IMG/VR virus record: IMGVR_UViG_3300032156_000005
Span: 1 to 64,000 of that record
Reading direction: 5' to 3' (one strand)
DNA length: 64,000 nt
DNA from: a virus
Lineage: Duplodnaviria > Heunggongvirae > Uroviricota > Caudoviricetes
Shown here: positions 28,909 through 58,401 of the stretch, piece after piece
Numbering within the stretch: the first letter of the stretch is position 1
How the letters are laid out: each line of letters opens with the position of its first letter
Translations under genes and position numbers: made by a program
Notes under the pieces: model-generated
Database searches by the model: none
What the model was told of the DNA's origin: nothing
Seen by the model: only the letters and a program-made list of their open reading frames with translations

Positions 28909-29520
28909 CTATATCATCATCAATGTCTTGTACACCTTTGCTTCTGCCAATGCATCAGCCAGGGCGTCGTGGGCATTAATTACTGGTATGTGAAGCTGTT
29001 TACACATAGCCGATAGACCTACCGTAGGGAAGGGAATCTGCTCCCCATGAAAATGGGCCCTATCATTTATTGACACGGCAAAAAGCATGGAATCTCTTGG
29101 ATGTGGATGAAAAAACTGATTGAAACTTTCCATACCCAACCATGCCTTTAGGAACCCAGCTTCAAATGCCCAGTTGTGTGCCAATGGAACAAGTGATTTA
29201 CGAAAAGGTAATTCAAGTCGTTGAAACCACTCATCAAATAAGTCAGCCACACGCTCTTGACTAACACCTTCTTTTGCCAGTTTGAATATGTCAATACCGT
29301 GGATTATCGTAGCTTCCTTTTCAGCACGCTCAGGATACATTGGTGCGATTTTCCAGTAAAAAGGATGCACGTCCTCTAATGGTTCCATGTCGCTATTAAG
29401 TGGTTGTACCGCTATCTGAATAATCTCATGATATCCTGGCATAGTGCCAGTAGTCTCAACGTCCACTGCCGCTAGTAGGTTGTGGTTAATGTTTACTAGA
29501 CTGTTGTAGGTCCTAGGCAT
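28909..29520 (-). CDS. DnaQ-like 3'-5' exonuclease (DEDDh family)
   Basis: Exo I AAVDVETTG, Exo II HNWAFEAGFL, Exo III HDALADALAEAK. Confidence 0.7.
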   Translation of the reverse strand: MPRTYNSLVNINHNLLAAVDVETTGTMPGYHEIIQIAVQPLNSDMEPLEDVHPFYWKIAPMYPERAEKEATIIHGIDIFKLAKEGVSQERVADLFDEWFQRLELPFRKSLVPLAHNWAFEAGFLKAWLGMESFNQFFHPHPRDSMLFAVSINDRAHFHGEQIPFPTVGLSAMCKQLHIPVINAHDALADALAEAKVYKTLMMI

Positions 29521-29999
29521 TAGCGACTCCTCTTCTTCGCTGGCTTCTTCGCTGGCTTCTTCGCTGGCTTCTTCGCTGGCTTCTTCGCTGGCTTCTTCGC
29601 TGGCTCAGTTGGCTGAATGTTGTATGGGTTATCCTGAATCTCCAGTGGATTATTGGGCATGTTATTTAATGACTCGGGTAACAATCCCTCTTTAATCATT
29701 TCTTCCGTCTCAAAGTAGCAGGCAAGATTCCACAAGGCTGCTACCAGATGTGGCTCATCACGATGCCCAATTAGATGCTTACCAGCATGCCTGATAGCAC
29801 TATCGATGTAACACCGTAGATCAATTCCCTTTCTCCAATTATCAGGTCCATATTTGGTGGCACCGTCCTCAAAGTGTTGTGCTAAACGGATCAGTGATCG
29901 CATAGGCAGCAGATCCATTCGCCCCTTGCCTGATGCACAATCTCGCACGGCCCCGGTAGAAAATTGTCTACGTGTTCCAGAATCCTTTAATGTGGCCAT
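29520..29999 (-). CDS. dATP/dGTP diphosphohydrolase-like N-terminal domain protein with C-terminal (PAKK)6 basic tail
   Basis: Motifs SGKGRMDLLP...GATKYGPDNWRKG...RHAGKHLIG.RDEPHLVAALWNLACYFE match, from memory, the phage dNTP-diphosphohydrolase N-domain pattern. C-terminus PAKKPAKKPAKKPAKKPAKKPAKK. Confidence 0.45.
   Translation of the reverse strand: MATLKDSGTRRQFSTGAVRDCASGKGRMDLLPMRSLIRLAQHFEDGATKYGPDNWRKGIDLRCYIDSAIRHAGKHLIGHRDEPHLVAALWNLACYFETEEMIKEGLLPESLNNMPNNPLEIQDNPYNIQPTEPAKKPAKKPAKKPAKKPAKKPAKKRSR
29532..29603 (-). repeat. Perfect 12-bp x 6 tandem repeat (CTTCTTCGCTGG) encoding (PAKK)6
   Basis: Six identical head-to-tail copies between 29532 and 29603. Confidence 0.9.
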
Positions 30000-36789: not shown

Positions 36790-36862
36790 AAGCAGGGTGG
36801 AGTAGTTGGTAACTCGATTGGCTCATAACCAATAGATCGTCGGTTCAAGTCCGGCCCCTGCC
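36790..36862 (+). tRNA. tRNA with CAU anticodon (Met / fMet-like / possibly Ile2-lysidine)
   Basis: Manual cloverleaf fold. Acceptor 36790-36796 pairs with 36855-36861 (6 bp plus an A1·C72 mismatch). U8, D-stem GAGU/ACUC, D-loop AGUUGGUA with G18G19. Anticodon stem AUUGG/CCAAU, loop CUCAUAA. 5-nt variable loop. T-stem GUCGG/CCGGC, T-loop UUCAAGU. Discriminator A. No encoded CCA. Confidence 0.8.
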
Positions 36863-36910
36863 ACTATGGACGTACCGTTCTTTTGTCACGGTAACTTTTA
36901 GGGGGTAAGT

Positions 36911-38818: not shown

Positions 38819-41590
38819 ATGATACCCTTAAATACGCCCACCACCATCAAGTTGGAAACAACGACCCAATCAGGGGCTCGTGTTAGGGTTCCAGCTACAA
38901 TCTTGGCCACTGACGCCAGGATTGAATTCTTAAAATCCCCCTTCTCTTTGAAGGACGAGATTAAGGCAATGAAGCATGCCGAGTGGCAGGGGTACAAGGA
39001 TCCACCAAGGAAAATTTGGACAGTAGAAAACTGTCAACGTAATTGGTTTCAATTACAGGTCATGATGGGGGAAAATCCCTACGAATGGTTTGATCGTCCA
39101 CTCCAGCATTTCAAATATGATCGCCCTCTGATGGGTCACCAGTTTGATATGTCGGACGCTGGACTCACATACCATTATCAACTCTTCGGAGCAGAAATGG
39201 GCTGCATTGCCGGGGACGCTATTGTTCACGTAAACCGTGCTGGTAGGGGATTTGCGTTTTGTTTGAGTGAACTTTGTTATAAATTCCACGGTGGTCGGAG
39301 TAGCGGCACGACGATGCGTTCCGACACCCGCGGTAGGTCATGGGATCTGAGTATTCCAACCTATGTCCAAGGATTTAAGGGCGACCGAATTGGACTAGTT
39401 AAGATACAGGATGTATTGTATAAGGGGCGGAGAGAGGTTGTTCGCGTGACTTTGGAGACAAAATCACTGACACTGACTCCAGATCACGAGGTCTGCATAG
39501 GAGCCTTTAGGTATGGTAAGTTTAAACCAGTTCAGGATCTAGTAATTGGTGACCGTGTTATGGTACGACTTGATGATGGAGTATCCGATGAGGTTAATAG
39601 CGAGGTACAGGCACTCCCGAGTACGCTAGTAAAGACAACAACGCGTGGTATGGGTTACTGGCTAGATAAAGATGGATATATACGTATCGGCGGTCTAAAG
39701 GGTCATCCACGTTGGGGTGCCCACGGAGTCTACGAGCATCTTCTAGTAATGGAAGATTTGCTTGGCCGACCTGTGCAGATTGGCGAAGAGGTTCACCATA
39801 AGAATAAACAGCGATGGGATAATCGTCCGTCGAATTTAATTTTGTGTGCGACTAAAACAGACCACATGGCATTGCATCAAAATTACAAGAATTTAAAATG
39901 TGGGTGTTATGTGTTTGAATGTGTCACCGGCATTAAAGACGCCGGGTCGATTGATGTCTATGATATCCAATGTGAGGGTCCATACCACAACTTTGCCGCT
40001 AATGATATAATTGTCCATAACTGCGGCAAAACTTTGTCAGCCATTGAAACGATGGAGAAGTCAGGTAAAAAGAAGTGGTGGTGGGTAGGTCCTAGATCTG
40101 GACTCTATGCAATCGAGCGCGAATTTAAGAAATGGGAAATCAGTCCCAACCTTGAAGTGGAGTTAATGACCTACGAGGGTCTGGTAAAACGCATGGGAAT
40201 GTGGAAGTCAGGCGACCCCGCTCCAATGGGTATTGTCTTCGACGAAATCAGCAGGTGTAAAACTGCCAAGACGCAACGAACACAAGCCGCCCAGGCTATT
40301 GCAGACGGTGTCCGTGCTGATTGGGGTCTAGAAGGTTACGTCCTTGGCATGTCTGGCACCCCATCCCCCAAGTCACCTGTGGATTGGTGGGCGCCGACGG
40401 AGATCATTTGGCCTGGATTTTTACGCGAGGGGGATTCTAATGCGTTCAAATTTAGACTTGGGATTCACAAAAAAGAAGAGAGTGCTATGGGTAATGCCTT
40501 CTGGCAACTCGTGGACTGGAGAGACGACGAACGAAAATGTGATGTTTGCGGAGAATTTAAGGAAGAGGGTATGCATTCATGTCGTATCGGCACGGATTTG
40601 AATGGGACGGAATCGGACATTCATGATTTTAAAGCCAGCATAAATGAGGTGGCATACCTTAATGAGCGACTAAAGGGGTTGGTCATCGTGAAGCTGAAAA
40701 AGGACTGCCTCGATCTGCCAGAGAAACAGTATCGACAGGTATTCTGTAAACCATCACCAGCAACCGTCCGAGTTGCTGAAGCCTTGATGAAATCGGCACC
40801 AAATACCATTACTGGTCTAACTCGTCTTCGTGAATTGAGCGACGGGTTTCAGTATAGGGACAAGGTCGTTGGTAAGGAAACTTGTCCAATATGCAAGGGC
40901 ACTTGTTTGAATACTTACTGGGTAGATCCAGAAGATTCTGAGCGTGCTTTTACTATGACCGATATGTTAGACGCAGAGTATGTATCTACATTGATTCAAA
41001 CTGAGATGCCATGTGTATCATGTAATGGCACGGGCGAAGTCGCTAAGATCGAGCGTCAAGTGAAAGAAGTACCGTGTCCCAAGGAAGCGGAGTTAATTAA
41101 TCTCCTAGACGAAAACGAAGAGACTGGCAGGTTGGTTGTATTCGCTGGTTTCACTGGTTCGATTGACAGAGTGACCAACGTATGTATGAAGCAGGGTTGG
41201 GACGTGATTAGGGTTGATGGACGTGGTTGGTTGACTTTTAAGGCTGACGGAGAAACAACAGCCGAAGCGCCATTGGATTATTGGGCTGACGTTGTGAATC
41301 ACCCACGAGTAGTATTTGTTGCACATCCGAAGTCTGGCGGTATGGCCCTGACATTGACCGAAAGTAGAATGATCTGTTTCTACTCGAATGACTACAATCC
41401 AGAATCCCGAAGTCAGGCCGAGGATCGTATACATCGTCCTGGAATGGATATTAATCGTGGAGCAACAATAGTTGACTTGTTACATTTACCCACCGATTTA
41501 AAGGTGCTGGAGATACTGAAAGCTAATAGGCGTCTAGAACTAATGTCTCTCGGCGAATTTCAGGGCTGCTTTCAAGATGTCGAAGCATAG
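38819..41590 (+). CDS. SNF2/DEAD-like helicase interrupted by an intein in the Walker A motif
   Basis: Exteins give Walker A FGAEMG|CGKT and a DExx-like FDEISRC. Helicase C-terminal motif VI is QAEDRIHRPGMDI, preceded by ...VVFAGFTGSIDRV.... Cys4 clusters CPICKGTC...CVSCNGTG. The intein occupies 39203..40021. Confidence 0.7.
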   Translation: MIPLNTPTTIKLETTTQSGARVRVPATILATDARIEFLKSPFSLKDEIKAMKHAEWQGYKDPPRKIWTVENCQRNWFQLQVMMGENPYEWFDRPLQHFKYDRPLMGHQFDMSDAGLTYHYQLFGAEMGCIAGDAIVHVNRAGRGFAFCLSELCYKFHGGRSSGTTMRSDTRGRSWDLSIPTYVQGFKGDRIGLVKIQDVLYKGRREVVRVTLETKSLTLTPDHEVCIGAFRYGKFKPVQDLVIGDRVMVRLDDGVSDEVNSEVQALPSTLVKTTTRGMGYWLDKDGYIRIGGLKGHPRWGAHGVYEHLLVMEDLLGRPVQIGEEVHHKNKQRWDNRPSNLILCATKTDHMALHQNYKNLKCGCYVFECVTGIKDAGSIDVYDIQCEGPYHNFAANDIIVHNCGKTLSAIETMEKSGKKKWWWVGPRSGLYAIEREFKKWEISPNLEVELMTYEGLVKRMGMWKSGDPAPMGIVFDEISRCKTAKTQRTQAAQAIADGVRADWGLEGYVLGMSGTPSPKSPVDWWAPTEIIWPGFLREGDSNAFKFRLGIHKKEESAMGNAFWQLVDWRDDERKCDVCGEFKEEGMHSCRIGTDLNGTESDIHDFKASINEVAYLNERLKGLVIVKLKKDCLDLPEKQYRQVFCKPSPATVRVAEALMKSAPNTITGLTRLRELSDGFQYRDKVVGKETCPICKGTCLNTYWVDPEDSERAFTMTDMLDAEYVSTLIQTEMPCVSCNGTGEVAKIERQVKEVPCPKEAELINLLDENEETGRLVVFAGFTGSIDRVTNVCMKQGWDVIRVDGRGWLTFKADGETTAEAPLDYWADVVNHPRVVFVAHPKSGGMALTLTESRMICFYSNDYNPESRSQAEDRIHRPGMDINRGATIVDLLHLPTDLKVLEILKANRRLELMSLGEFQGCFQDVEA
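39203..40021 (+). mobile_element. Intein (273 aa) with HNH homing-endonuclease domain, inserted in the helicase P-loop
   Basis: Starts Cys (CIAGDAIVHVNRAG, block A) and ends ...NDIIVHN followed by +1 Cys (CGKT). The internal HNH motif is EEVHHKNKQRWDNRPSNLILCATKTDHMALH. Removing it restores the contiguous P-loop GAEMGCGKT. Confidence 0.75.
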
Positions 41591-41746: not shown

Positions 41747-42286
41747 ATGGGTTTAACCTTCTTTACGTCTGATCTACATCTTGGTCACGGTAATATACTC
41801 AAGCATCAGCCCGTTAGAGCCATTGAATTTGGCGACATAGATACGATGGACACCCATCTTATTGATTCGATCAATAAGACGGTGTCTAAAAATGATGAAT
41901 TATGGATCCTAGGAGACTTCGCGTGGAAGGCGAGCCGTTACGGACATTATCGGCAACGCTTGAAGGTCCGTAAGTTGCATGTTGTAATGGGGAATCACGA
42001 TTCGTCGTCGTTACGGATTCACGTGTCATCCTTGAATGATATGGTTTGTCATAAATTCGACGGAATTAAGTTCCACTTAACCCATTATCCTATGCTATCT
42101 TGGAGTTCCAGTAATCATGGCTCTATTCATTTATACGGGCACTGTCATGGAACGGTGGAAAATCGATTGCGTGGGAGATCTATGGACGTGGGTATTGACA
42201 ACGCACGTAAGTTATTAGGTGCATGGCGTCCATTTTCAATTAATGAAGTATTAGGATTATTGAATGTTGACATTGGGAATAGTTAG
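41747..42286 (+). CDS. Calcineurin-like metallophosphoesterase (179 aa)
   Basis: Motifs TSDLHLGH, ILGDF, MGNHD, HLTHYP, YGHCHG. Confidence 0.65.
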   Translation: MGLTFFTSDLHLGHGNILKHQPVRAIEFGDIDTMDTHLIDSINKTVSKNDELWILGDFAWKASRYGHYRQRLKVRKLHVVMGNHDSSSLRIHVSSLNDMVCHKFDGIKFHLTHYPMLSWSSSNHGSIHLYGHCHGTVENRLRGRSMDVGIDNARKLLGAWRPFSINEVLGLLNVDIGNS

Positions 42287-42977
42287 ATTATTGATCGACG
42301 ACGTACTACCTACGCTTTCTAGTAAAGAGTCCGTAGTATGTTTATCCCGTAGTGGAATAGTCCCATGTGACTTCAAGGCTATTACTGACTACATGCAAGA
42401 GACTGGTTATCCACCGACACCTGGACCATACTCAGGAAAAGAGATGTTCCTGGATTTGGGATTTAATACGTATGACGACATAGACTTCGTACCGGACGAA
42501 GGCGTGTCGATTGTACACGATATGAACACACCCTATTGTGGTGACGAATACAGTCTCGTATTTGAATGCGGTACAATGGAGCATATCTTTGATACTGCTC
42601 AAGTGTTTAAGAATACAATTAATCTGTGTGAAGTTGGTGGGACAGTCTGCCATATATCTCCACTGACGTGGTTGAATCATGGTTTCTATAACTTTTCATT
42701 AACACTATTTTACGATGTCTATCGAAACAATGGTTTTGACGACTTCAAATTTTGGTTGATAAACTGGCCTAGGAATTATGGACAAGTGGGCTCCTCAAAG
42801 GCCATGAAGATTGATTTCACACCAACTCAAATTTTACCACCAATTGGTTCTGATTTTTTGATGGTCGCTTTTACGGCACGAAAATCGCATAAGTGTGATT
42901 TTAAGATTCCAATACAAGCGGCCTATGACCCCAGCCTCGCATTAAATACTCCACTACGAAAGCATACAAATGAATAG
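42264..42977 (+). CDS. Putative class I SAM-dependent methyltransferase
   Basis: Motif I-like MFLDLGF, acidic motif II DFVPDEG, motif III region YSLVFECGTMEHIFD, then NLCEVGGTV (L..GG). The true start may be the internal Met near 42393. Confidence 0.45.
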   Translation: MLTLGIVRLLIDDVLPTLSSKESVVCLSRSGIVPCDFKAITDYMQETGYPPTPGPYSGKEMFLDLGFNTYDDIDFVPDEGVSIVHDMNTPYCGDEYSLVFECGTMEHIFDTAQVFKNTINLCEVGGTVCHISPLTWLNHGFYNFSLTLFYDVYRNNGFDDFKFWLINWPRNYGQVGSSKAMKIDFTPTQILPPIGSDFLMVAFTARKSHKCDFKIPIQAAYDPSLALNTPLRKHTNE

Positions 42978-44139
42978 ATGTTTAGCTTGCGGACACTTAG
43001 TTTCACGCCAATTATTCAATCCAGGTCCACAACCGTTATCGGCGTTGAATTTACCTCGGAGCGAGTCTGAAGCAGTGGATGCCAACAGATTTCCAATGAA
43101 CTTTCGATGCTGTGGAATCTGTGGCCATGTGTGGAACACTGACTTCGAGTACACTAAAGTACCCTATGCGGGGGACTCAAATCTCATGTATAACAGCGGT
43201 GCGTTGTGGCAAGACCACATGCAAATGCTGGTGAGTAAGTTAGCTGAGAACAAGGCTATGTGGGTTAAGAATCCAGTTATTGATATTGGTTGTGGCGATG
43301 GGCAATTTCTTTCGTTACTACTCAAAGCAGTACCCGAAGCAAAGTGTGTGGGCTTTGAACCGGGTATTGATGGTACTAAAATTACCGAGTTTGAATGTGT
43401 ACAGGATTACTTTCGACCAGAGCGAGATATTGCGGCAAGACAACCATCGTTACTTATTTGTCGCCACGTCTTAGAACATATCGCGGACCCACGTGATTTT
43501 ATTGCCTCTGTTGCATACTGGTGTGGACAATGTTCCGTTGCGACCGTGTTTTTAGCTGAAGTTCCATGTTGCGAAAAGGCATTGGAGTCGGGGAGAGTGT
43601 CGGACTTTTTATACGAACATGTTTCCAACTTTACACTGAACAGTCTATATGCGATGTTTGGCACTTCTGGTTTTAAGTTGCTTGAAACTTCACGTTTATA
43701 CGGGGACGAAGTGGTCGTTGGATTTTTCCAGCCGCATGAGGAAGCTTTGAAACAGAATCATCGGTCAATGCTTAAATTCTCGACTTACGTGCAGGACTCA
43801 AGAACAAATATCCAATTGAAGCAATCTAATTTGGATGGCGATGTTGTTCTATGGGGTGGCACTGGAAAGAGCGCAGCATTTTTGAATATGTTCGGATTCG
43901 ATGCAGATCGCTTTCCTGTGGTGGTCGATTCAGATCCACTAAAAGTAGGTAGGTATGTTCCAGGAACGGGGCAGAGGATTGATTCACCAGATAGTTTGGT
44001 AGGACGAACACCAACTATCATTATTACAACTGCATGGCGTGCTAATGACATCTATGCAGAGATCAATCGCCGTGGCATTAGATACAAGAGTCTATTAGTT
44101 CTTAAAGACGGAGACTTGAATGAGTATACCCAATCTTGA
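42970..44139 (+). CDS. Zinc-ribbon C-methyltransferase-like SAM methyltransferase (TylCIII/NovU-type architecture)
   Basis: N-terminal C-x-x-C...C-x-x-C zinc ribbon (CLACGH...CCGICGH), SAM motif I VIDIGCGDGQFLSLL, then a C-terminal extra domain (~120 aa). The arrangement is as in NDP-sugar C-methyltransferases. Confidence 0.55.
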   Translation: MNRCLACGHLVSRQLFNPGPQPLSALNLPRSESEAVDANRFPMNFRCCGICGHVWNTDFEYTKVPYAGDSNLMYNSGALWQDHMQMLVSKLAENKAMWVKNPVIDIGCGDGQFLSLLLKAVPEAKCVGFEPGIDGTKITEFECVQDYFRPERDIAARQPSLLICRHVLEHIADPRDFIASVAYWCGQCSVATVFLAEVPCCEKALESGRVSDFLYEHVSNFTLNSLYAMFGTSGFKLLETSRLYGDEVVVGFFQPHEEALKQNHRSMLKFSTYVQDSRTNIQLKQSNLDGDVVLWGGTGKSAAFLNMFGFDADRFPVVVDSDPLKVGRYVPGTGQRIDSPDSLVGRTPTIIITTAWRANDIYAEINRRGIRYKSLLVLKDGDLNEYTQS

Positions 44140-45877
44140 TTTGTATGACTGCCTAGCCCTACTAAAGAGGCAAGACTACCTAAAATTAACTCAAAATTTG
44201 ATCGAGGTAGTTAAACATTTTAACCTTGTCTGTTATACGCAGCTAAGTCGAGCAGAGCGCGTTAATTTAGACGATTGTATGTCTACATTTTTCTTTATTT
44301 TTTCTCATCCCAGTTTTCAAATACCTGCTGATTACGCGAAGGTATTTGTTAATATAAATCATGTCATTTCAAATATGGCAATGATGTCGTCAGTTGGTTC
44401 AACGCTTCCGGCATTAAATCGAGTAGCCCTACAGGATAATAACTACGTAAAGCTTCTAACATTATCAACCTGTCAGACACCACTCGATGTGAATTTTAAC
44501 GACCTGTTTACTCCTAATGCGGAGTTGACTTCGGTTTGGTGGTTGAATTATCAGACGTCAGCAGCGGGCACGCTTACCAAGGAAGTACACGATCGAGTAG
44601 TTTCCCATCTTCAGAGTATGCCAGAGAAGTTTGTATTGTCGGATTTTCGCACGGCACCACTTTATTTTCAAAGTACCTACTACTCTCCTGAAACTGATTA
44701 TATCATTAAAACAGAGTTGAATCGTCAAGTACGATCCAAGTTGTCCAGTGCAAAGATACAAACAATAAATCCTAAGAGAGTGGCCATTATTACTGATAGA
44801 TGGCAACCCACCACAGCGGTATATAAGAGTTGTTATCATCAAATTGAAGCGTTATCGAACAAGTATGACCTAACTTTGGTTTATTTTTCAGAGGACAGAG
44901 AATCAAAGATTGATAGGGGGCTCTTCAAAGAAACTAAGCGAGTTTACTTGGAGCCAGATATGAAGCGATTAAATTTCTCTGAGATCAAGCATAACGATTT
45001 TAAGTTTGCATACTTCCCAGATATCGGCATGAATTACGAGTCGGTTTGTCTGTCAAATATGCAAGTTGCACCAATCATGGCCACGGGTTACGGCCATCCA
45101 GTTAGTACCTTTGGTAGTAAGATTGACTATTTTATTGGTGGTATGGACGCTGAAGTGCCAGAACTCGCCGAGAAGAATTACAGTGAGAGACTAGTGCTTA
45201 TACCTGGAATTGGGGCTCATCCGGTCTTTCCAAACTACGTGCGAAAAAACCCCACCCCGTCTAAATTTATTATCAACTGTTGTTGGACTGCTCCAAAGAT
45301 TAACTACCCAATGCTAGAAGCATTGAAAGAAATCAAGTCGCGGGCTTCCAAGCCAGTGCATTTTCAGTTTTTCCCGTCCTGGACGGTTAGCCGATACCAG
45401 TCCGCATTACCATTTCTAACTGGAATGGACAAGGTATTTGAAGGAAATTCGACGGTATATTTTGACACTCCCTACCAACAATACCTGGAGTTGTTGGAAC
45501 AAGGTCGATTTTCACTAGACTCGTATCCGTTTGGGGGTTATAACACGGTTGTGGACTCATTGTTTGTCGGATGCCCAGTTGTAACGATTGAAGGGTCTAG
45601 ATTCTTTAATAGGGCATCATCTGCGTTAATGCGTAAGGTTGGATTACCTGATCTGATAACAACGAGCGTTGAAGAGTACATTGGACTGGCTGTTGAACTA
45701 ATTGACAATAGCCAAGAATTAGATAGTCTACGATCCGTAATAGGTAGTACGGATTTAAAGAGCCTGTTAGTGGACAACAATGAACCTATTTCATTCGCAA
45801 ATGCCATTGAGTATCTCGTAGATACCCACATCGAATTGAAGGCTTCGGGGAGTCGAAAACCGATAATCTTGGCATGA
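44120..45877 (+). CDS. GT41-family (O-GlcNAc-transferase-like) glycosyltransferase
   Basis: C-terminal catalytic region FDTPYQQYLELLEQGRFSLDSYPFGGYNTVVDSLFVGCPVVTIEGSRFFNRASSALMRKVGLPDLITTSVEEYIGLAVELIDNSQELDSLR aligns by eye with the OGT block [49 protein letters not shown]. Confidence 0.55.
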   Translation: MSIPNLDLYDCLALLKRQDYLKLTQNLIEVVKHFNLVCYTQLSRAERVNLDDCMSTFFFIFSHPSFQIPADYAKVFVNINHVISNMAMMSSVGSTLPALNRVALQDNNYVKLLTLSTCQTPLDVNFNDLFTPNAELTSVWWLNYQTSAAGTLTKEVHDRVVSHLQSMPEKFVLSDFRTAPLYFQSTYYSPETDYIIKTELNRQVRSKLSSAKIQTINPKRVAIITDRWQPTTAVYKSCYHQIEALSNKYDLTLVYFSEDRESKIDRGLFKETKRVYLEPDMKRLNFSEIKHNDFKFAYFPDIGMNYESVCLSNMQVAPIMATGYGHPVSTFGSKIDYFIGGMDAEVPELAEKNYSERLVLIPGIGAHPVFPNYVRKNPTPSKFIINCCWTAPKINYPMLEALKEIKSRASKPVHFQFFPSWTVSRYQSALPFLTGMDKVFEGNSTVYFDTPYQQYLELLEQGRFSLDSYPFGGYNTVVDSLFVGCPVVTIEGSRFFNRASSALMRKVGLPDLITTSVEEYIGLAVELIDNSQELDSLRSVIGSTDLKSLLVDNNEPISFANAIEYLVDTHIELKASGSRKPIILA

Positions 45878-45899: not shown

Positions 45900-46946
45900 A
45901 TGAGTGAACTACAAATAACCGCTGTTACAATCGACGAAGTTATACCACATCCAAATGCCGATAGACTAGATCTATTACGCATTGGAGCCTACACTGTCTG
46001 TGAGACACGTGGCAAGTATAAGGCTGGGGATATTGTGGCCCATTTTCCTCCAGACATCCTATTGCCTAACATCACGGCCAAGCAGCTTGGAGTTGAGAAC
46101 TACCTTAAAGACGCCATCTATCCAGGGGATACCTATAAGAGTAAGTGTCGTGTCGCGGCTATTAGATTGCGTGGTTGTGCCTCATTTGGATTCGTAGTTC
46201 AAACACGATGGGCCGCTGTTCAGAACGATGATTTAATGGCTCGTTTTCATGGCGTTAAATATGAGGCCCCCGAACCCACATGGTATAAGCAAGGCGAGTG
46301 CGCAAGCGGTGATACCCGATTCCACAAGTATACGGACATTGAAAATTATAGAACGTCTAAGTATACCTGCGCCATTCCGACTGGAACTCCGGTACGGCTC
46401 ACGGAAAAGCTACACGGCGCGAACTCAAGGGTGGGTATCATTGATGGCGAGTTTATGTGTGGATCTCACAATTGCTGCAAAAAGGAATCTGTAGATTCAC
46501 TTTGGTGGGCACCACTTACACGCGACATGCGTGACATGCTTCACTGTATCGCCGAGGACGGTAAGAATGTGATTGCATTCGGAGAAATCTTTGGTTCCAG
46601 GGTTCAGTTTATGGACTATGGTATCATCGGTAATTGTGGCTATCGTCTATTTGATATTTCCGTGGATGGAAATTATCTCGATTGGGATATGGTGAAGTAT
46701 TACGCTACGCGGTTCTGCATCCCATTGGTACCGTTACTTTATACCGGTGAATTTACACATGGAATAGTAGATCAGCATGTTGATGGTCCAACGACTATGG
46801 GAGAAGTACACTCCGCATTCAAGGGGCGTGAAGGCATTGTAATCACGCCACTTACGGAAACATTCAGCCCGCGTCTTGATGGTCGTATGATTCTAAAGGC
46901 ATTGTCGGTAGATTACCTGGAACAACGAAAGAGTGATAGCCATTAA
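45900..46946 (+). CDS. RNA ligase (Rnl2-like nucleotidyltransferase with N-terminal extra domain)
   Basis: Motif I LTEKLHGANSRVGII matches the lysine-adenylate motif of T4 Rnl2 (EKIHGTN). Downstream nucleotidyltransferase motifs (FGEIFG..., LFDISVDG) and an N-terminal ~150-aa domain are present. Confidence 0.65.
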   Translation: MSELQITAVTIDEVIPHPNADRLDLLRIGAYTVCETRGKYKAGDIVAHFPPDILLPNITAKQLGVENYLKDAIYPGDTYKSKCRVAAIRLRGCASFGFVVQTRWAAVQNDDLMARFHGVKYEAPEPTWYKQGECASGDTRFHKYTDIENYRTSKYTCAIPTGTPVRLTEKLHGANSRVGIIDGEFMCGSHNCCKKESVDSLWWAPLTRDMRDMLHCIAEDGKNVIAFGEIFGSRVQFMDYGIIGNCGYRLFDISVDGNYLDWDMVKYYATRFCIPLVPLLYTGEFTHGIVDQHVDGPTTMGEVHSAFKGREGIVITPLTETFSPRLDGRMILKALSVDYLEQRKSDSH

Positions 46947-50947: not shown

Positions 50948-53335
50948 ATGTCAAATAGTCAACTTATATTTTGTGATCTTGAGACCTGCGGCCTACACTC
51001 GATGGGTGTTTTATTGCAGTGGGCTGAAGGCGACGGCCCCATCCACCTATGGGAGATCTGGAAGGAGCCGGTTCAGCGAACCCTCGATCTACTTGAATAT
51101 ATAACCAAGCATGAAATAGTTGGATTTAATCTTGTTTTTGATTGGTATCATATCTCGAAATTATATACCATTTGGTCCCTGCTTCCTCGTGATTGGATCC
51201 CCGAACAGCATATTGAGGAAATTGCCCAACTAGAGCCGCAAGGTATGGACGGCCCCTGTTTGAAGCCTGTGGCAGCCTGCGACCTACTTCTACACTCACG
51301 GAAGGGCCCCTACCAGTCTTTAATGGCCCGCGAGGACATACGCATTAGACGCGTTCCTACGTCCCTTGCTTACGCCTTAGCCCAGGAACTCGAAAAGATA
51401 ATCGAGTTCGATGGCATCTATTTTGCCAAGACAGTGGATAAAACCGCCCCTCGCTGGAAGGTCTTTGATATTGTTTCAAAGAAGGGTATTGTTAATCAGG
51501 ATTTTAAGGACGTTGTACTCAAGTTTCACGCGGCTGGTGGTCTCAAGTTCCTAGCTGAATACGCCCTAAAGATGCCTCCTAAGTACCACTATGCCGACGT
51601 CGAATTGGATTCGAGTTGGAGGCCATACGAACTAGGATATGCTCCAACAGCATTGGCAGTCGCCAAAGCACCAGATTGGGAGTGTTATAATACAGATGGA
51701 AAGCTGATCGGAATGGCGTGGCCAGCCTTAATCCGGGAGCATATTCGGCACTGGCACGAGAGTGAGCCAGCACGTGAGTATGCGAGGGCCGACGTTGTCT
51801 ACACCAGATTATTGTGGGAACACTTTGGTAAGCCTGAAGCTGGTGATACAGACAGTGAATTGGCCTGTATGGTTGCAGCGGTTCGCTGGCACGGTTTTAC
51901 AATCGATGAGCCAGGTATCGAGGACCTACTTCAGCACGCTGTATCTGTTGTTGCACAATCTCCCGTAAATATCAATCAACCTCCCGCTGTACGTCGATAT
52001 CTATCGGAATGTATGGATGAGATGGAGCAATTGATAATTGAAGAAAGCACCAAAAAACAAAACATCGAACAGATTGCAACATGGACAATTGAAGAGGAGG
52101 AACCTTGCACCAAATGTGAGGGTGAGGATCCGAGATGTATACGTTGCAATGGTACTGGAAGACTATTTAAGGGGGCACACCCCGCCGCTGTTCGGGCAGT
52201 AGAATTGTTAGCTGTTAAAGAAGCTTCAAAGGAAGTCGAACTATACACTAAATTATTACGTGCTGGCAGGTTGCATGCAAGTTTCAAAGTGATTGGTACA
52301 CTTTCTTCACGCATGTCTGGTGGAGACGGATTAAATGCGCAAGGTATTAAGCACGCTAAAAACGTTCGTAAAATGTTTCCACTCGCTTGGGACGGGATGG
52401 TACTCTGTGGTGGAGACTTCGACAGTTTTGAAGTGACGATTGCAGACGCAGTCTTCGACGATCCTGGCTTGAGACAGACGCTTTTAGATGGCAAGAAGAT
52501 CCATGCGATTCTTGGTGTAGAATTATACCCAGGAATGACATACCAAGAGATTGTTGATTCTGATGGTGCCGTAACCCCACTGGTGGATTATTATACCAGA
52601 TCCAAACAAGGAATGTTCGGATTCATGTACGGTGGAGATCACTCAACCTGGAATAAGCGCCTGAATATACCAGAGGAGCAAGCGCGGAAAGCCTATGATA
52701 AGTGGTGTGCTAAGTATCCTGGTATTGGCAAATCTCGTATGCGTATCTATGACGATTTTTGCTCGATGCGTCAGCCAGCGGGAATCGGTAAACAAGTAGT
52801 CTGGAAAGAGCCAAAGGATTACGTGGAATCATTCCTCGGATTCCGAAGGTACTACACCTTAGAGAATCGTATCTGTAAAGCTTTATTTGGACTGGCTAAT
52901 AAACCACCTGCGGCATGGCATAATGCGAAAATTCGTGTCGTGAGGCGAGATCGACTTCAGTTGCCTGTTGGAGCAACTCAGAGCGCTTTATATGGTGCAG
53001 CATTTCAGATTCAAGCCGCAAATATGCGTGCAGGCAATAATCATTTGATACAATCGCCAGGGGCCGAAATCACTAAACAGGTTCAAAGACGGATCTGGGA
53101 TTTGCAGCCATCAGGTGTGAATGAGTGGTATGTCGCACCTTTTAATATACATGACGAAATTAACTGTGTGACACGACCAGAATCAGTGGATGCAGTCGCC
53201 CAAGTAGTCCAAGAAACAGTAGAATCCTACCGCCCTCAAGTTCCACTTATTGGTATGAAGTGGGTGAAGGAAATGACAAGCTGGGCGGAAAAGAAATCTG
53301 GTGCCGACATGGTACATATAACATGGAAAAAATAA
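50948..53335 (+). CDS. DNA polymerase I-like (family A) with 3'-5' proofreading exonuclease
   Basis: Exo I IFCDLETCGL (D-x-E). Pol motif A CGGDFDSFEVTIA (cf. DYSQIELR), motif C NIHDEINCV (HDE), O-helix-like KQGMFGFMYGG. Confidence 0.8.
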   Translation: MSNSQLIFCDLETCGLHSMGVLLQWAEGDGPIHLWEIWKEPVQRTLDLLEYITKHEIVGFNLVFDWYHISKLYTIWSLLPRDWIPEQHIEEIAQLEPQGMDGPCLKPVAACDLLLHSRKGPYQSLMAREDIRIRRVPTSLAYALAQELEKIIEFDGIYFAKTVDKTAPRWKVFDIVSKKGIVNQDFKDVVLKFHAAGGLKFLAEYALKMPPKYHYADVELDSSWRPYELGYAPTALAVAKAPDWECYNTDGKLIGMAWPALIREHIRHWHESEPAREYARADVVYTRLLWEHFGKPEAGDTDSELACMVAAVRWHGFTIDEPGIEDLLQHAVSVVAQSPVNINQPPAVRRYLSECMDEMEQLIIEESTKKQNIEQIATWTIEEEEPCTKCEGEDPRCIRCNGTGRLFKGAHPAAVRAVELLAVKEASKEVELYTKLLRAGRLHASFKVIGTLSSRMSGGDGLNAQGIKHAKNVRKMFPLAWDGMVLCGGDFDSFEVTIADAVFDDPGLRQTLLDGKKIHAILGVELYPGMTYQEIVDSDGAVTPLVDYYTRSKQGMFGFMYGGDHSTWNKRLNIPEEQARKAYDKWCAKYPGIGKSRMRIYDDFCSMRQPAGIGKQVVWKEPKDYVESFLGFRRYYTLENRICKALFGLANKPPAAWHNAKIRVVRRDRLQLPVGATQSALYGAAFQIQAANMRAGNNHLIQSPGAEITKQVQRRIWDLQPSGVNEWYVAPFNIHDEINCVTRPESVDAVAQVVQETVESYRPQVPLIGMKWVKEMTSWAEKKSGADMVHITWKK

Positions 53336-53790
53336 ACACGCCTAAAAAACTAGATGTCTCCTTGGTTAATGTGGACTCTTTTTGGTCCAAAGTAGCCAGA
53401 GGCCCTAAGAATGAATGCTGGCTTTGGGAGGGTACTCGCCATACTGCCGACCATTATGGCCAATTTCAAGTCGGGTCTAGGCGTGTATTAGCCCATCGAG
53501 TCGCCTATCAATTAGTACACGGGCCAACTAATAAACAAGTTTGTCATGCTTGTGACGTCACACTTTGTTGTAATCCAAGTCATTTATTTGAAGGATCCCA
53601 AGGAGACAATATACTTGATATGGTGCAAAAGGGCCGGGGATCCACCCAAAAATTAACCCCTGTCGAAGTGAAGTGCATACGAATCTTGGTCGAAAATAAA
53701 ATCTCTAAGACAGCTATCGGTAAAATTTTTGCCATAAGTAAATCGACAATCCAGCATATAATTAAGGGTCGATCTTGGAAATGGTTATAA
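53323..53790 (+). CDS. HNH homing endonuclease (HNH_3-like)
   Basis: ECWLWEGTRHTADHYGQFQVGSRRVLAHRVAYQLVHG...VCHACDVTLCCNPSHLFEGSQGDN is the classic HNH_3 pattern (G.R..AHR...H.CD...C.NP.HL...N). ATG overlaps the polymerase stop. Confidence 0.7.
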   Translation: MEKINTPKKLDVSLVNVDSFWSKVARGPKNECWLWEGTRHTADHYGQFQVGSRRVLAHRVAYQLVHGPTNKQVCHACDVTLCCNPSHLFEGSQGDNILDMVQKGRGSTQKLTPVEVKCIRILVENKISKTAIGKIFAISKSTIQHIIKGRSWKWL

Positions 53791-54716: not shown

Positions 54717-56396
54717 ATGCGAACCGGTTCTCGAATTATTGGAGCAAGACGAATGAGATTTCATCTATTTGGGTTAGCGAACATCCCAACGTGTAAAGAG
54801 AATACCTATGAACCCATGACTCCACTGGTTTGGAACATGGCTAAGATGCTACATGACCACGGCCATCACGTCATCTTCTATGGTGCCGAGGGGAGTAATC
54901 CACCTTGTAGCGAGCTAGTAAATATCGTTCCAAAGGATTTGTTACCTGATCCCGCTATTGGAAATCACGGTGTACCCATGGCAGCATGGAAAAACGACGG
55001 CGGCAGCCCTTCCTGGCAGTCTTTCATAAATACTGGACGACTGGAATTGCGTAAACGCTACCAGACGGGTGATATTTCACTCATTAGTTTTGGTCAGTAC
55101 CAAAGATTCGTGGCAGAGGAATCAAAACTCGCTTGTGAATTCATGTGCGGATACTCAGGTATTTTTAGTTACCATAAGGTTTTTCCATCTAGTGCTTGGA
55201 TGCATTATCTATATGGTGAACTCAAAATGGAACGAAACCCCACTTGGACTGATTGTGTCATCCCACATTACCTGGATCTAAGTGACTTCAGATACCAAGA
55301 GGAAAAGGGCGACTATCTTCTATGTCTGGGTCGAATCGATCGAGATAAGGGCACAGACATCGCCATCGACATCGCAAATAGGAGTGGCTCCAAGATCATC
55401 GTTGCCGGTGTCGATATGGTAACGCACGATATTCCGGATTGGATTAAACAAATGCCGGGTAACGTAGAATTTGTTGGCTACGTGGATACAAAGCGAAGAC
55501 TCGAACTATTACGTGGTGCCAAGGCATTATTGCATCCATGTAGGTGGTTGGAGCCATTTGGGATGGTTTTAATTGAATCGTTGGCTTGTGGCACGCCGAT
55601 TATTGCTAGTGACTGGGGTGCCCTACCTGAGATTATTGAAGAGGGTAAGACTGGTTTTTGTTGCCGGGATATGTCTGAGTTTATACAGGCCGTAAAGAAT
55701 GTGTCATACTTAAATCCGCGTGATTGCCGTATTTCCGCCGAACGGGATTATGGGCTGGAGATTGCGTATACAAGGTATATGAAGTACTTTACGCGACTTG
55801 CCAAACTACTGGGAGGTGGCTGGTATGAGACCAGAGGTATCTGGCGTGGACCAGATGTTGTTGGGCGGGTACGCCGACTACAACCGACTGATAAACCACT
55901 ACGAGGGGCAGAGATCGGTGTTGATCGCGGTGCTTTGTCAGGGTATCTCATGTCTGAACTACCTAATCTCAATTTGTTATTGGTTGATACCTGGAGTACC
56001 TTCGCAGACGATTCAGGGTACACAAAATCTGGTGATCTTGTAACCCAACGAACACAAGAACAGCGGGATGCTGATCTGTTTGAAACTATGCGTGTCACTC
56101 CTCGTGATCGTTCTTGTATCTGTAGAATGACATCCGCCGAAGCTTCTGAAAAGGTTTTAGACGGATCGCTTGATTTTGTATTCATTGACGCAGACCATAG
56201 TTATGAGGGTGCCAAATCTGATATACAGTTATGGGCCTCTAAGATACGAGATGGTGGCATTCTTTGCGGGCATGACTTCGGTATGGAAACGTGGTTCCCT
56301 GACTGGGGTGTTACAAAGGCGGTTACTGAGTACGCGGAAAGCGTTGGTAAAACTGTTGAGTTGGGTTCTGATTGGACATGGTTTATCCAGGTGTAA
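54717..56396 (+). CDS. Glycosyltransferase (GT-B, GT1/GT4-like) fused to a class I SAM-dependent methyltransferase
   Basis: GT signature EPFGMVLIESLACGTPIIASDWGALPEIIEEGKTGF (E-x7-E motif). The C-terminal ~190 aa carry MTase motifs GAEIGVDRGALSGYL (motif I-like) and LDFVFIDADHSYEGAKSD (TylF/macrocin-O-MTase-like FIDADH). Confidence 0.6.
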   Translation: MRTGSRIIGARRMRFHLFGLANIPTCKENTYEPMTPLVWNMAKMLHDHGHHVIFYGAEGSNPPCSELVNIVPKDLLPDPAIGNHGVPMAAWKNDGGSPSWQSFINTGRLELRKRYQTGDISLISFGQYQRFVAEESKLACEFMCGYSGIFSYHKVFPSSAWMHYLYGELKMERNPTWTDCVIPHYLDLSDFRYQEEKGDYLLCLGRIDRDKGTDIAIDIANRSGSKIIVAGVDMVTHDIPDWIKQMPGNVEFVGYVDTKRRLELLRGAKALLHPCRWLEPFGMVLIESLACGTPIIASDWGALPEIIEEGKTGFCCRDMSEFIQAVKNVSYLNPRDCRISAERDYGLEIAYTRYMKYFTRLAKLLGGGWYETRGIWRGPDVVGRVRRLQPTDKPLRGAEIGVDRGALSGYLMSELPNLNLLLVDTWSTFADDSGYTKSGDLVTQRTQEQRDADLFETMRVTPRDRSCICRMTSAEASEKVLDGSLDFVFIDADHSYEGAKSDIQLWASKIRDGGILCGHDFGMETWFPDWGVTKAVTEYAESVGKTVELGSDWTWFIQV

Positions 56397-57744: not shown

Positions 57745-58401
57745 ATGCCGAAACGAAGTTGGAAACTTGATGATCCATTGTTTGAATCCCTGCCAAAATA
57801 CGATAAAGATCGCACGCAAGAATTACTAGACTTGATTCAGTCCAATAAGGACACACCAAAAGACGAATTAATACTCCAGCTTCTAGCATTATGCAAGATA
57901 ATTTTACAGAGATTTTTGCGTGGTAATCATGCTATTAAACGGAATCTCCCTGATATAATTGGTATTCTTATGTTGCGTACTTGTGCTTGGGTTGACACCT
58001 TAAAGCATGGGCCGAAAAATAATGTAAAATCCCCGAGTTATTATTGGCAGCTAGTAAAGAATGAAATTAATGATTTTAAACTGGATGGTACTAACCCTAA
58101 TGTCTCTGGTGCTTGGTTGTGTAGGCAAGCAAGACACGGTAAATTACAACCTCAGCAGGTTTATTTGAAAGAGGATCTATTACAGATAAATCCAACTGAG
58201 ACTTTAGAGCTAGAAGATATACTAATCACACTGGCTGAAACGGAACAGGAACGTGGTGTTGTTATCCTGCGATTTAACGGATACACGGATGCCGAAATTG
58301 CAACCCAGTTTAATACAACCAGACGGTGCATTCAACTTATTCGAGCAGGCTTAGAATCTAGGTACGATCACTATTTACAGAGGAACAACCAATGCGTCTA
58401 G
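57745..58401 (+). CDS. Sigma-70 region-4-like transcription factor (putative phage sigma factor)
   Basis: C-terminal QERGVVILRFNGYTDAEIATQFNTTRRCIQLIRAGLESR resembles sigma-70 region 4 / LuxR-type HTH. Confidence 0.45.
   Translation: MPKRSWKLDDPLFESLPKYDKDRTQELLDLIQSNKDTPKDELILQLLALCKIILQRFLRGNHAIKRNLPDIIGILMLRTCAWVDTLKHGPKNNVKSPSYYWQLVKNEINDFKLDGTNPNVSGAWLCRQARHGKLQPQQVYLKEDLLQINPTETLELEDILITLAETEQERGVVILRFNGYTDAEIATQFNTTRRCIQLIRAGLESRYDHYLQRNNQCV

Follow-up and report, generated by a model that had tools for sequence, protein, structure and literature searches.

Several described systems resemble parts of the locus considered here. Among phages, the account of Freeman 2023 given in PMC11600133 describes cluster O mycobacteriophages in which an O-methyltransferase followed by three glycosyltransferases leads to modification of the capsid and tail tube. 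In bacteria, flagellin glycosylation islands of enterobacteria are predicted to be marked by GT41 glycosyltransferases with methyltransferase domains (De Maayer & Cowan 2016, PMC4875605), and the HMW1C-like NGTs (ApNGT, AaNGT), built of an all-alpha domain and a GT-B region, act in the cytoplasm on large exported surface proteins (PMC10507012). The NDP-hexose C3-methyltransferases TylC3, TcaB9, MtmC, and KijD1 share three domains (with a zinc-binding Cys4 site, a GCGDG motif, an E-H dyad in 'YEH', and a C-terminal nucleotide-sugar domain) and are partnered with natural-product glycosyltransferases of family GT1. We found no earlier report in the literature of a GT41/NGT-like enzyme or TylC3-type C-methyltransferase pair in a virus. 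A preliminary description of the present locus had held its module to be undescribed in phages; this stands for the GT41/TylC3-type pair, but not for virion-modifying modules of methyltransferase plus glycosyltransferase in general, to judge from the summary of the cluster O mycobacteriophages in PMC11600133 (citing Freeman 2023).

The window (the whole 64,000-nucleotide stretch of phage DNA that was analysed) contains a three-gene cluster, proposed in the preliminary description at 42264-45877. The genes are real and the coordinates exact: the three ORFs in Table 1, which by ORF reading lie on one strand and overlap successively by 8 nt and 20 nt, coincide fully with the gene calls publicly available for the contig. 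The cassette is located in a replication and nucleotide-metabolism module, between a helicase gene on one side and an exonuclease-like gene and DNA polymerase on the other, and its core pair of genes is an insertion in the early/replication module of the phage, whose genome is at least as long as the assembled contig (121.5 kb). The neighbouring metallophosphoesterase, also correctly recognized at the outset, is a flank of this insertion and no partner of the cassette; in the related phage L128, which lacks the cassette, it directly adjoins the RNA ligase gene.

Table 1. Genes and sequence features of the cassette and its surroundings, in window coordinates.
Feature	Coordinates	Strand	Evidence
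Metallophosphoesterase (PdeM-like), left flank, outside cassette	41747..42286	+	phrog_547 4e-42; TIGR04123 4e-8
Divergent class I methyltransferase-fold protein, 237 aa, accessory	42264..42977	+	homologues; AlphaFold/Foldseek
C-methyltransferase-like protein, 389 aa, core gene 1	42970..44139	+	Methyltransf_23, Methyltransf_14, weak Methyltransf_13
Overlap junction of methyltransferase and GT41 genes	44110..44139	+	sequence reading
GT41 protein glycosyltransferase (predicted), HMW1C/NGT-type, 585 aa, core gene 2	44120..45877	+	PF13844, NF049992, AlphaFold/Foldseek
RNA ligase (DRB0094 type), right flank, outside cassette	45900..46946	+	PF09414 1.7e-19; TIGR02306 7e-30
GT4 (Glycos_transf_1)-Methyltransf_24 fusion	54717..56396	+	Pfam; phrog_3408 3e-60

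The functional unit within this cluster is the C-methyltransferase/GT41 pair, which is inherited all-or-none. A survey that used the neighbouring exonuclease-like gene as its anchor found both core genes at 32 of 61 related phage loci, neither at 29, and one alone at none. Conversely, when phage loci are found through GT41, the methyltransferase lies just upstream in all 29, with an overlap of 4-32 nt in most related loci; at two loci (L108 and L109), a second GT41 copy stands between the two genes. Identity among the phage GT41 proteins ranges from 32 to 76%, roughly tracking the phage backbone. In the window itself, a GGAG ribosome-binding site (44110-44113) precedes the GT41 ATG (44120) by 6 nt and falls within the 3'-terminal part of the methyltransferase gene, the stop codon of which is at 44137-44139; this placement within the overlapping gene implies translational coupling of GT41 to the methyltransferase.

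The first core gene is predicted to encode a TylC3/TcaB9/MtmC-type sugar C-methyltransferase at full length, with a zinc ribbon, a SAM domain, and a C-terminal NDP-sugar domain, as the preliminary description had proposed in naming a TylCIII/NovU architecture. In Pfam, the 389-aa protein hits Methyltransf_23 (6e-14) and Methyltransf_14 (PF08484; 5e-11, 43.1 bits, above the cut-off of 23.5), and it has a weak, sub-threshold match of 17 bits to the Methyltransf_13 zinc ribbon (PF08421). It aligns over its full length with MtmC, TcaB9, and KijD1 (family profile against MtmC 4rv9, 8.9e-30; TcaB9, 2.9e-22), at approximately 20-25% identity. Four cysteines (C4, C7, C48, C51), G107 and G109 of the GCGDG motif, H170, and H217 are invariant in the family, and E216 is nearly so; conservation extends to the C-terminal NDP-sugar domain. 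E216/H217 ('LYEHVSNF') and H170 align with E224/H225 and His181 of TcaB9 ('YDEH' and 'CH'), in a register confirmed by the sequence of the Y222F mutant, 4e2x; we take these TcaB9 residues to be active-site residues, roles that mutant PDB entries back only indirectly. Unlike its characterized relatives, the phage enzyme is partnered with a protein glycosyltransferase and lies outside any deoxysugar pathway, because neither the window nor related loci yielded a gene for a dehydratase, aminotransferase, or reductase; its substrate would therefore have to come from the host.

Our analysis of the second core gene supports part of the preliminary assignment, which was to an OGT-like GT41 enzyme. Membership in GT41 holds: Glyco_transf_41 (PF13844) scores 39.3 bits, above the cut-off of 25, and the same match is precomputed on homologues. 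The profile resemblance over the whole length is instead to HMW1C/NGT proteins. A family profile aligns with AaNGT over residues 17-600, nearly the whole chain (8.5e-56), and NCBIfam NF049992 (HMW1C/NGT) matches at 1.4e-40 with 139.5 bits, far under its cut-off of 1000. An AlphaFold model (pLDDT 93.7), all-helical over residues 8-207, retrieves NGT, OGT, and SPINDLY in Foldseek, with TM scores of 0.78-0.82 to ApNGT/AaNGT versus 0.5-0.6 to OGT/SPINDLY; the latter can be aligned over the C-terminal part alone, from approximately residue 320, and the Pfam search found no TPR families in the 585-aa protein. An OGT-like enzyme was rejected on these TM scores and the lack of TPR repeats, and the model points to a GT41 protein with an HMW1C/NGT-like fold, combining an all-alpha domain with GT-B.

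At approximately 20% identity to the NGTs, which transfer glucose from UDP-Glc to Asn, the phage protein shares their donor side and lacks their acceptor-reading residues. K393 and N475 are invariant and correspond to the nucleotide-sugar-binding residues Lys440 (Lys441 in ApNGT) and Asn520 of AaNGT. In contrast, Arg177, His214, and Asp215, by which NGTs recognize the sequon's +2 Ser/Thr, and Gln468, also acceptor-reading (PMC10507012), are not kept: the profile alignment places Ser, Ala, and Pro ('RTAPLYF') and Trp ('FFPSWTV'), respectively, in the phage protein. The phage enzyme further differs from the NGTs in being phage-encoded and in having a C-methyltransferase partner rather than an HMW1-type adhesin or two-partner secretion partner; no sequon-rich adhesin gene lies near it in the window.

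A clue to what the pair may modify comes from its cellular homologues. The 11 best non-phage genome matches all belong to Planctomycetota or unclassified MAGs, and in nine of them GT41 adjoins flagellins of 900-1069 aa and/or fliD-fliS. Bacterial counterparts of the two phage genes are located between the flagellin gene and fliD-fliS, these flagellar-locus GT41 proteins are usually accompanied by the same methyltransferase, and in a neighbour-joining tree they sit beside the phage proteins. More broadly, at 67 of 80 genome loci of bacterial homologues, there is no methyltransferase and no flagellar neighbour within 10 kb. The flagellar setting of the homologues, the main clue to emerge here, was absent from the preliminary description. 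Sequons do not mark these flagellins, which hold 3-11 N-x-S/T sites, fewer than the 9-17 expected. In Sulfurimonas, the methyltransferase/GT41 pair follows a 963-aa Thr/Asp-rich repeat protein with 17 sequons against 12.3 expected (p = 0.095). The two halves of the GT-B catalytic region share 44-59% (first) and 40-45% (second) identity between the phage and flagellar-locus GT41 proteins, whereas the all-alpha acceptor-binding domain shares only 19-30%, so the acceptor may have changed.

Both described flagellin systems offer partial parallels. The Enterobacteriaceae islands share with the phage locus a GT41 and a SAM methyltransferase; compared by description, however, these are predictions involving SPINDLY/COG3914-type fusions (PMC4875605), whereas the phage has two separate, overlapping genes, a TylC3-type methyltransferase with an NDP-sugar domain, and no flagellar gene in its window. 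FlmG/Maf resemble the bacterial homologues in logic only, as soluble enzymes with an N-terminal acceptor-binding domain and GT-B that modify flagellin before export; FlmG relies on a TPR domain, and the sugar it transfers is pseudaminic or legionaminic acid (bioRxiv 10.1101/2022.03.25.485807).

The other two sugar-related genes noted in the preliminary description turn out to be accessory rather than members of the module. The 237-aa protein had been called a class I methyltransferase, which holds as a fold assignment, although the canonical GxGxG motif is absent: queried alone, the protein matches no family, but 32 of 36 homologues (among 61 found) give a weak match to Methyltransf_12, and class I SAM methyltransferases are the sole Foldseek matches of its AlphaFold model (pLDDT 88.6), at a low TM of approximately 0.4. 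Its gene occurs in only a few relatives and at a different position in two of them (L002 and L010), and it is linked to glycan genes elsewhere, as in Desulfatibacillum, where a homologue adjoins a GT2-Methyltransf_24 fusion. A second gene for sugar handling, the downstream fusion, is inherited separately from the core pair: it shares 37% identity with the 'group 1 glycosyl transferase' of cyanophage ACG-2014f and occurs at 72% identity in two phages (L157 and L174) that lack the cassette. Its glycosyltransferase and methyltransferase parts are as first described (Glycos_transf_1, 4e-22; Methyltransf_24, 1.5e-13), but Pfam lists no TylF family for it at E <= 0.01. Among the other profiles proposed in the preliminary description for checking its assignments, Glyco_transf_41, Methyltransf_14, and Glycos_transf_1 all match and Methyltransf_13 does so weakly.

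Taken together, the enzyme families, the fold, the donor-side and catalytic residues, the coupling, the co-inheritance, and the placement of the cellular homologues in flagellar loci make it reasonably probable that the core pair is a two-gene, translationally coupled cytoplasmic cassette that puts a C-methylated sugar on protein. The general idea of synthesis and transfer of a methylated sugar, already put forward in the preliminary description, is upheld, as are the enzyme families; the substrate chemistry and the acceptor we infer. With SAM, the TylC3/TcaB9-type enzyme would add a C-methyl branch to an NDP-4-keto(-6-deoxy)hexose of host origin; the window yielded no NDP-sugar dehydratase or reductase. 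Before GT41 uses the product, either a host enzyme or the methyltransferase might reduce its 4-keto group; MtmC is bifunctional in this way, carrying out both methylation and 4-keto reduction. The NGT-fold GT41 would then act in the cytoplasm, as NGTs do (PMC10507012), and transfer the methylated sugar to protein, probably onto Ser/Thr of a large, Thr-rich, surface-destined protein and not onto Asn of an N-x-S/T sequon. In this phage, glycans may also be extended or methylated further by the 237-aa protein and the GT4-Methyltransf_24 fusion. We tentatively name an exported host filament protein, flagellin, as the single most likely acceptor. Points against this reading are the lack of flagellar genes and of NDP-sugar dehydratase or reductase genes, the low identity of the acceptor-binding domain to that of the flagellar-locus homologues, the many bacterial loci with no methyltransferase or flagellar neighbour, and the absence of an evident gain from modifying flagellin in a lytic cycle.

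Virion surface proteins are about as likely an acceptor as host flagellin or another surface filament, and taken singly somewhat unlikely; here the proteins decorated would be those of the phage capsid, tail, or fibres, and particle stability, adhesion, or recognition would be altered. The precedent is that of the cluster O/F mycobacteriophages (Freeman et al. 2023, as cited in PMC11600133), which likewise place a methyltransferase ahead of one or more glycosyltransferase genes, outside the structural module. As far as that summary goes, those genes, which have been shown to modify proteins, encode an O-methyltransferase, whereas the present cassette encodes a C-methyltransferase. Retention of the cassette through deep phage divergence, the strong divergence of the GT41 acceptor-binding domain from bacterial homologues, and the presence in the window of several Ser/Thr-rich virion proteins (e.g., 807-3083 and 21256-22266) would all fit a virion target. 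However, a tblastn search of 50,697 phage records revealed no glycosyltransferase with sequence homology to the phage GT41, those of the mycobacteriophages included; the capsid and tail proteins in the window show neither the Ser/Thr-rich C-terminal tails of the mycobacteriophage module nor a significant sequon excess; the MCP is constant in length (455-470 aa) over 80 relatives; and the cassette is missing from half of the lineage (29 of 61 loci).

A host polysaccharide, lipid-linked glycan, or small molecule, such as a C-methyl sugar on LPS, capsule, or a metabolite, is an improbable acceptor. By the names of their PDB entries, TylC3-type methyltransferases are best known from deoxysugar pathways for natural products and O-antigens, the phage also has a GT4-methyltransferase fusion of a kind typical in glycan assembly, and GT2 and GT4 genes occur at some bacterial loci with the pair; nevertheless, the characterized GT41 members (OGT, SPINDLY, and NGT) all act on proteins, judging from names, structures, and PMC10507012. 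The phage GT41, as modelled, is soluble with the acceptor-groove architecture of NGT, and its nearest cellular homologues lie in flagellar rather than polysaccharide loci. DNA hypermodification, with a modified base glycosylated and the methyltransferases acting on DNA or nucleotides, was among the targets first suggested and would fit the position of the cassette near the helicase, exonuclease-like, and DNA polymerase genes and a nearby gene for a MazZ-like dATP/dGTP diphosphohydrolase, but is highly unlikely because GT41 enzymes act on proteins (we know of none that acts on DNA, and the NGT fold is unlike known DNA glucosyltransferases) and because the phage encodes ThyX and dCMP deaminase, making canonical dTMP, with no hydroxymethylase found; moreover, the same pair stands beside flagellin genes in bacteria, and half of otherwise similar phages do without it.

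The cassette thus adds a GT41 and C-methyltransferase pair to the known phage modules of methyltransferase plus glycosyltransferase. If a host filament is indeed the acceptor, the infected cell would have its surface or receptor converted.

The functional unit of the cluster is a pair of adjacent genes encoding a sugar C-methyltransferase and a GT41-family glycosyltransferase. Among the phage-like loci found via the GT41 protein (called as such by common helicase, exonuclease-like, polymerase, or RNA ligase genes), the methyltransferase gene lies immediately 5′ of the GT41 gene in 29 of 29, at GT41 identities of 32–76%, and an overlap of 4–32 nt between the two ORFs is seen at most of these loci. 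In an independent survey, anchored on the neighboring exonuclease-like gene and covering the 61 loci with sufficient upstream sequence, both genes were present at 32 loci, neither at 29, and one alone at 0. This both-or-neither pattern marks the pair as an accessory cassette with all-or-none inheritance. Rosetta-stone fusions of the two enzymes were absent among the best 120 methyltransferase homologues, all of which are approximately 370–460 aa long. One phage clade (loci L108 and L109, 8157-11773) has two tandem GT41 paralogues 3′ of the C-methyltransferase.

The two ORFs of the pair and the 237-aa ORF preceding them lie exactly where the preliminary description had placed them (see table), and the gene calls of a public contig that includes the window (ENA ERZ27248148 k141_3988739, 121.5 kb) agree exactly. 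A GGAG is located 6 nt 5′ of the GT41 ATG, within the 3′ end of the methyltransferase gene, and a scan of the block for promoters and terminators returned no sites above shuffled background (in fact, fewer than in shuffled sequence), which is weakly suggestive of a single transcription unit. Together with the overlaps between the ORFs, these observations make co-transcription of the three genes probable, and the methyltransferase and GT41 genes are probably translationally coupled.

Coordinates of the cassette, its flanks, and other features of the window
Feature	Position	Strand	Remarks
dATP/dGTP diphosphohydrolase-like ORF	29520-29999	-	PF18909 (N-terminal domain), 7e-19
Single tRNA-Met (CAT)	36791-36864	+	
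SNF2-type helicase with probable intein	38819-41590	+	923 aa versus 646-652 aa in relatives
PdeM-like metallophosphoesterase	41747-42286		Left flank
237-aa protein ORF	42264-42977	+	Co-directional; 8-nt overlap with next ORF
389-aa methyltransferase ORF	42970-44139	+	20-nt overlap with GT41 ORF
585-aa GT41 ORF	44120-45877	+	Third of three co-directional ORFs
DRB0094-type RNA ligase	45900-46946		Right flank
Free-standing HNH_3 endonuclease ORF	53260-53790	+	Overlaps 3′ end of DNA polymerase A gene
GT4 (Glycos_transf_1) fused to Methyltransf_24	54717-56396	+	
ECF-type sigma factor-like ORF	57745-58401	+	PF07638, 7.8e-5

The 389-aa protein matches both Methyltransf_23 and the C-methyltransferase C-terminal domain Methyltransf_14 over threshold, with a weak match to the Methyltransf_13 zinc ribbon, and, for a profile built from 27 orthologues, the alignment to sugar C3-methyltransferases of solved structure runs from end to end (E-values of 8.9e-30 for MtmC, 2.9e-22 for TcaB9, and 5.6e-22 for KijD1). 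Family and structural profile matches thus agree with its initial identification as a zinc-ribbon C-methyltransferase with a GCGDG motif and a C-terminal domain. The four zinc cysteines, the GCGDG SAM motif, His170, and His217 are invariant across the orthologues, and Glu216 (of the Glu216–His217 pair in 'LYEHVSNF') is nearly so. In an alignment whose register is confirmed by the Y222F mutant chain of TcaB9, His170 and Glu216–His217 of the phage protein correspond to TcaB9 His181 and Glu224–His225, which we take, from the TcaB9 literature, to be catalytic residues. The conserved C-terminal domain (WGGTGK...VDSD...VPGTG) is the counterpart of the nucleotide-sugar-binding domain of these enzymes, which argues for methylation of an NDP-sugar prior to transfer.

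The 585-aa protein had been described as an OGT-like GT41 glycosyltransferase; the family assignment holds (Pfam GT41, 39.3 bits versus a cut-off of 25), but the likeness to OGT and SPINDLY is confined to the C-terminal lobe, whereas the full length matches HMW1C-like N-glycosyltransferases (NGTs). NCBIfam NF049992 (HMW1C-like) matches residues 74–557 at 1.4e-40, with a score far below the equivalog cut-off; the AaNGT profile match (8.5e-56) spans chain residues 17–600; and an AlphaFold model (pLDDT 93.7) superposes with TM scores of 0.78–0.82 on ApNGT and AaNGT versus 0.5–0.6 on OGT and SPINDLY. The donor-side residues K393 and N475 are invariant. In AaNGT, recognition of the N-x-S/T sequon at its +2 Ser/Thr is the task of Arg177, His214, and Asp215 (PMC10507012); profile alignment places Ser, Ala, and Pro at these positions in the phage enzyme, and Trp at that of Gln468. 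Because the sequon-reading residues are absent and the NCBIfam score falls below the cut-off, the protein has NGT architecture yet is not classifiable as an NGT. The reading of a true NGT was dropped, the giant flagellins described below being sequon-poor and the virion proteins having no significant sequon excess.

The 237-aa protein, initially read as a class I methyltransferase, has no family match alone, and 32 of its 36 homologues match Methyltransf_12 weakly. Its model (pLDDT 88.6) retrieves class I SAM methyltransferases only, at modest TM, in favor of that reading, but the glycine-rich motif I is absent from the family. Few relatives have such a gene, and its genomic position is sometimes different. 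The glycosyltransferase–methyltransferase fusion was borne out by matches to both Glycos_transf_1 and Methyltransf_24; the GT4 portion shares 37% identity with an uncharacterized glycosyltransferase from T4-like cyanophages, and the fusion also occurs, at 72% identity, in cassette-free phages. In Desulfatibacillum aliphaticivorans (locus L193, 5694-10127), a homologue of the 237-aa gene lies between a Glyco_trans_1_2 gene and a GT2–Methyltransf_24 fusion, an arrangement that mirrors the phage GT4–Methyltransf_24 fusion. The metallophosphoesterase, earlier named as lying next to the cluster, is a flank only: in L128, a relative lacking the cassette, it directly abuts the RNA ligase, and it is thus a neighbor of the insertion and no partner of the cassette. 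The phosphoesterase and ligase look like a nucleic-acid repair pair split by the insertion.

When 185,579 species genomes were scanned, the matches recovered were mostly from Planctomycetota MAGs; many such 'genome' matches may be mis-binned phage contigs, and loci were counted as bacterial only if they were without phage backbone genes. In 9 of the 11 best non-phage matches, the GT41 gene adjoins a flagellin gene of giant size (900–1069 aa) and/or fliD-fliS (assigned from precomputed Pfam matches and tblastn), and 7 of these 9 flagellar loci have the same methyltransferase type within approximately 2 kb of GT41. The giant flagellins match Flagellin_N and Flagellin_C over threshold. Contigs of 4.2 and 7.5 Mb carry some of the flagellar loci, which are therefore chromosomal. 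Giant flagellins adjoin GT41, with or without the methyltransferase, at L015 (4994-8191), L016 (1830-5039), L017 (5977-8772), L018, L022, L024, and L029. In a neighbor-joining tree (crude, and without bootstrap support), the flagellar-locus GT41s adjoin three phage clades, and a large clade without a methyltransferase or flagellar neighbor stands apart from the flagellar-locus proteins. Giant flagellins are already known (PMC6248924), as is the association of GT41 with methyltransferases as a prediction for flagella: in enterobacteria, flagellin glycosylation islands are predicted to be characterized by GT41 enzymes that carry methyltransferase domains (PMC4875605).

Other bacterial settings vary the arrangement. 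The order radical-SAM, C-methyltransferase, GT41, GT41 recurs at L019 (5456-13578) and L196 (9096-14784), and at L019 two sulfotransferases and a flagellin lie close by, which points to protein glycans of a more elaborate and possibly sulfated kind. In the cultured Sulfurimonas hongkongensis (GCA_000445475.1; L195, 5446-12963), a phage-type integrase and a 963-aa repeat protein are followed by the pair; the repeat protein has Thr/Asp-rich repeats that are RTX-like by eye and no Pfam match, and the locus may be a mobile element with both the enzyme pair and its substrate. A neighboring large Thr-rich exported surface protein is a common theme of the pair's settings.

From homology and gene context, we infer a cytoplasmic protein-glycosylation cassette, in which the methyltransferase would make a C-methyl branched sugar nucleotide from an NDP-4-keto sugar of the host, for transfer of the branched sugar to protein by the GT41 enzyme. 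O-linkage seems more likely than sequon N-linkage, because the sequon-reading residues are missing and because the neighboring flagellins are sequon-poor (3–11 observed versus 9–17 expected from composition in the Planctomycetota giant flagellins) yet 10–12% Thr. No dehydratase or reductase gene was found beside the pair in the window or related loci, and the GT41 donors known to us are UDP- or GDP-sugars, both weak points of the proposed mechanism.

The window is clearly tailed-phage DNA, with genes for a large terminase, portal, major head protein, and tape measure; the replication and nucleotide genes comprise a primase, SNF2-type helicase, DNA polymerase A, and ligase, and also a class II RNR, dCMP deaminase, and ThyX. 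Its virion proteins include the MCP (11100-12497) and the products of 807-3083, 12851-13348, 14739-15485, 21256-22266, and 24097-27240. There is no cultured relative; neither megablast of the region nor tblastn of the GT41 protein found a match in 50,697 phage records, and the DNA polymerase is approximately 25% identical to that of the Thermus phage P23-45 group. PADLOC returned no match to any defense system. Residues ~201–401 of the helicase match Intein_splicing (31 bits, below cut-off) and HNH_3, and this insert is probably an intein carrying a homing endonuclease; the free-standing HNH_3 ORF is probably a homing endonuclease as well. The PF18909 match is presumably MazZ-like, a type known from phages whose genomes contain 2-aminoadenine, and the annotated ORFs of the window include no PurZ-like gene. 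The closest cellular homologues of the cassette belong to Planctomycetota, and PF07638 is an ECF-sigma family that we take to be planctomycete-typical; together, these give a weak hint of a Planctomycetota host.

As to the target, host flagellin (or another exported filament) and the phage's own virion proteins are about equally supported. It is possible, although less likely than not, that a cassette for flagellin glycosylation was acquired by a widespread uncultured lineage of large phages, which during infection uses it to re-decorate the flagellar filament of the host or some other exported filament or adhesin. The context of the closest cellular homologues, the only direct evidence, favors such a host target, as do the accessory distribution and early-gene location of the cassette. 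Glycosylation of virion proteins has a precedent in known phage methyltransferase-plus-glycosyltransferase modules for protein glycosylation, which the cassette resembles, such as those of cluster O mycobacteriophages (PMC11600133, citing Freeman et al. 2023). The cassette has also been kept vertically in phages over a long time, and its acceptor-binding domain is strongly diverged, at 19–30% identity to the flagellar-locus homologues (versus 44–59% and 40–45% in the first and second halves of the GT-B catalytic region). Against a virion target, however, Ser/Thr-rich terminal tails and clear sequon excess are both absent from the capsid and tail proteins of the window, and the 80 relatives retrieved, a set without cassette-negative contigs, have major capsid proteins of constant length. 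DNA hypermodification, raised initially as a target, is unlikely, given that ThyX and dCMP deaminase make canonical dTMP, that no hydroxymethylase was found in the window, and that we know of no characterized GT41 enzyme that acts on DNA.

Since methyltransferase-plus-glycosyltransferase phage modules are known, the original claim that this combination is undescribed in phages is only partly right: a full-text literature search found no HMW1C-like or GT41 enzyme tied to phages, and no description of phage-encoded flagellin glycosylation. C-methyltransferase-like ORFs in the phage collection reach approximately 20% identity only, and are carried by a few 635–735-kb uncultured phages, a short metagenomic phage record, and cyanophage S-SKS1.

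If the cassette does re-decorate a host filament, it would be a protein-level analogue of O-antigen seroconversion, altering a motility organelle and phage receptor; the GT41/NGT fold would gain its first viral member, and no protein glycan built from a C-methylated sugar would precede this one. An active cassette would widen the range of soluble NGT-fold GT41 enzymes to include viruses and an acceptor logic not based on sequons; NGTs are in demand for glycoengineering in the cytoplasm. The cassette also suggests that branched C-methyl sugars, to our knowledge so far mainly from antibiotics and O-antigens, serve in protein glycosylation. It offers a testable two-gene system for distinguishing remodeling of host flagella by phages from glycosylation of their own particles beyond actinobacteriophages, and draws attention to an unstudied conserved flagellin-modification pair beside the giant flagellins of Planctomycetota; its importance would be greater if flagellar remodeling or a C-methyl-sugar protein glycan were confirmed.
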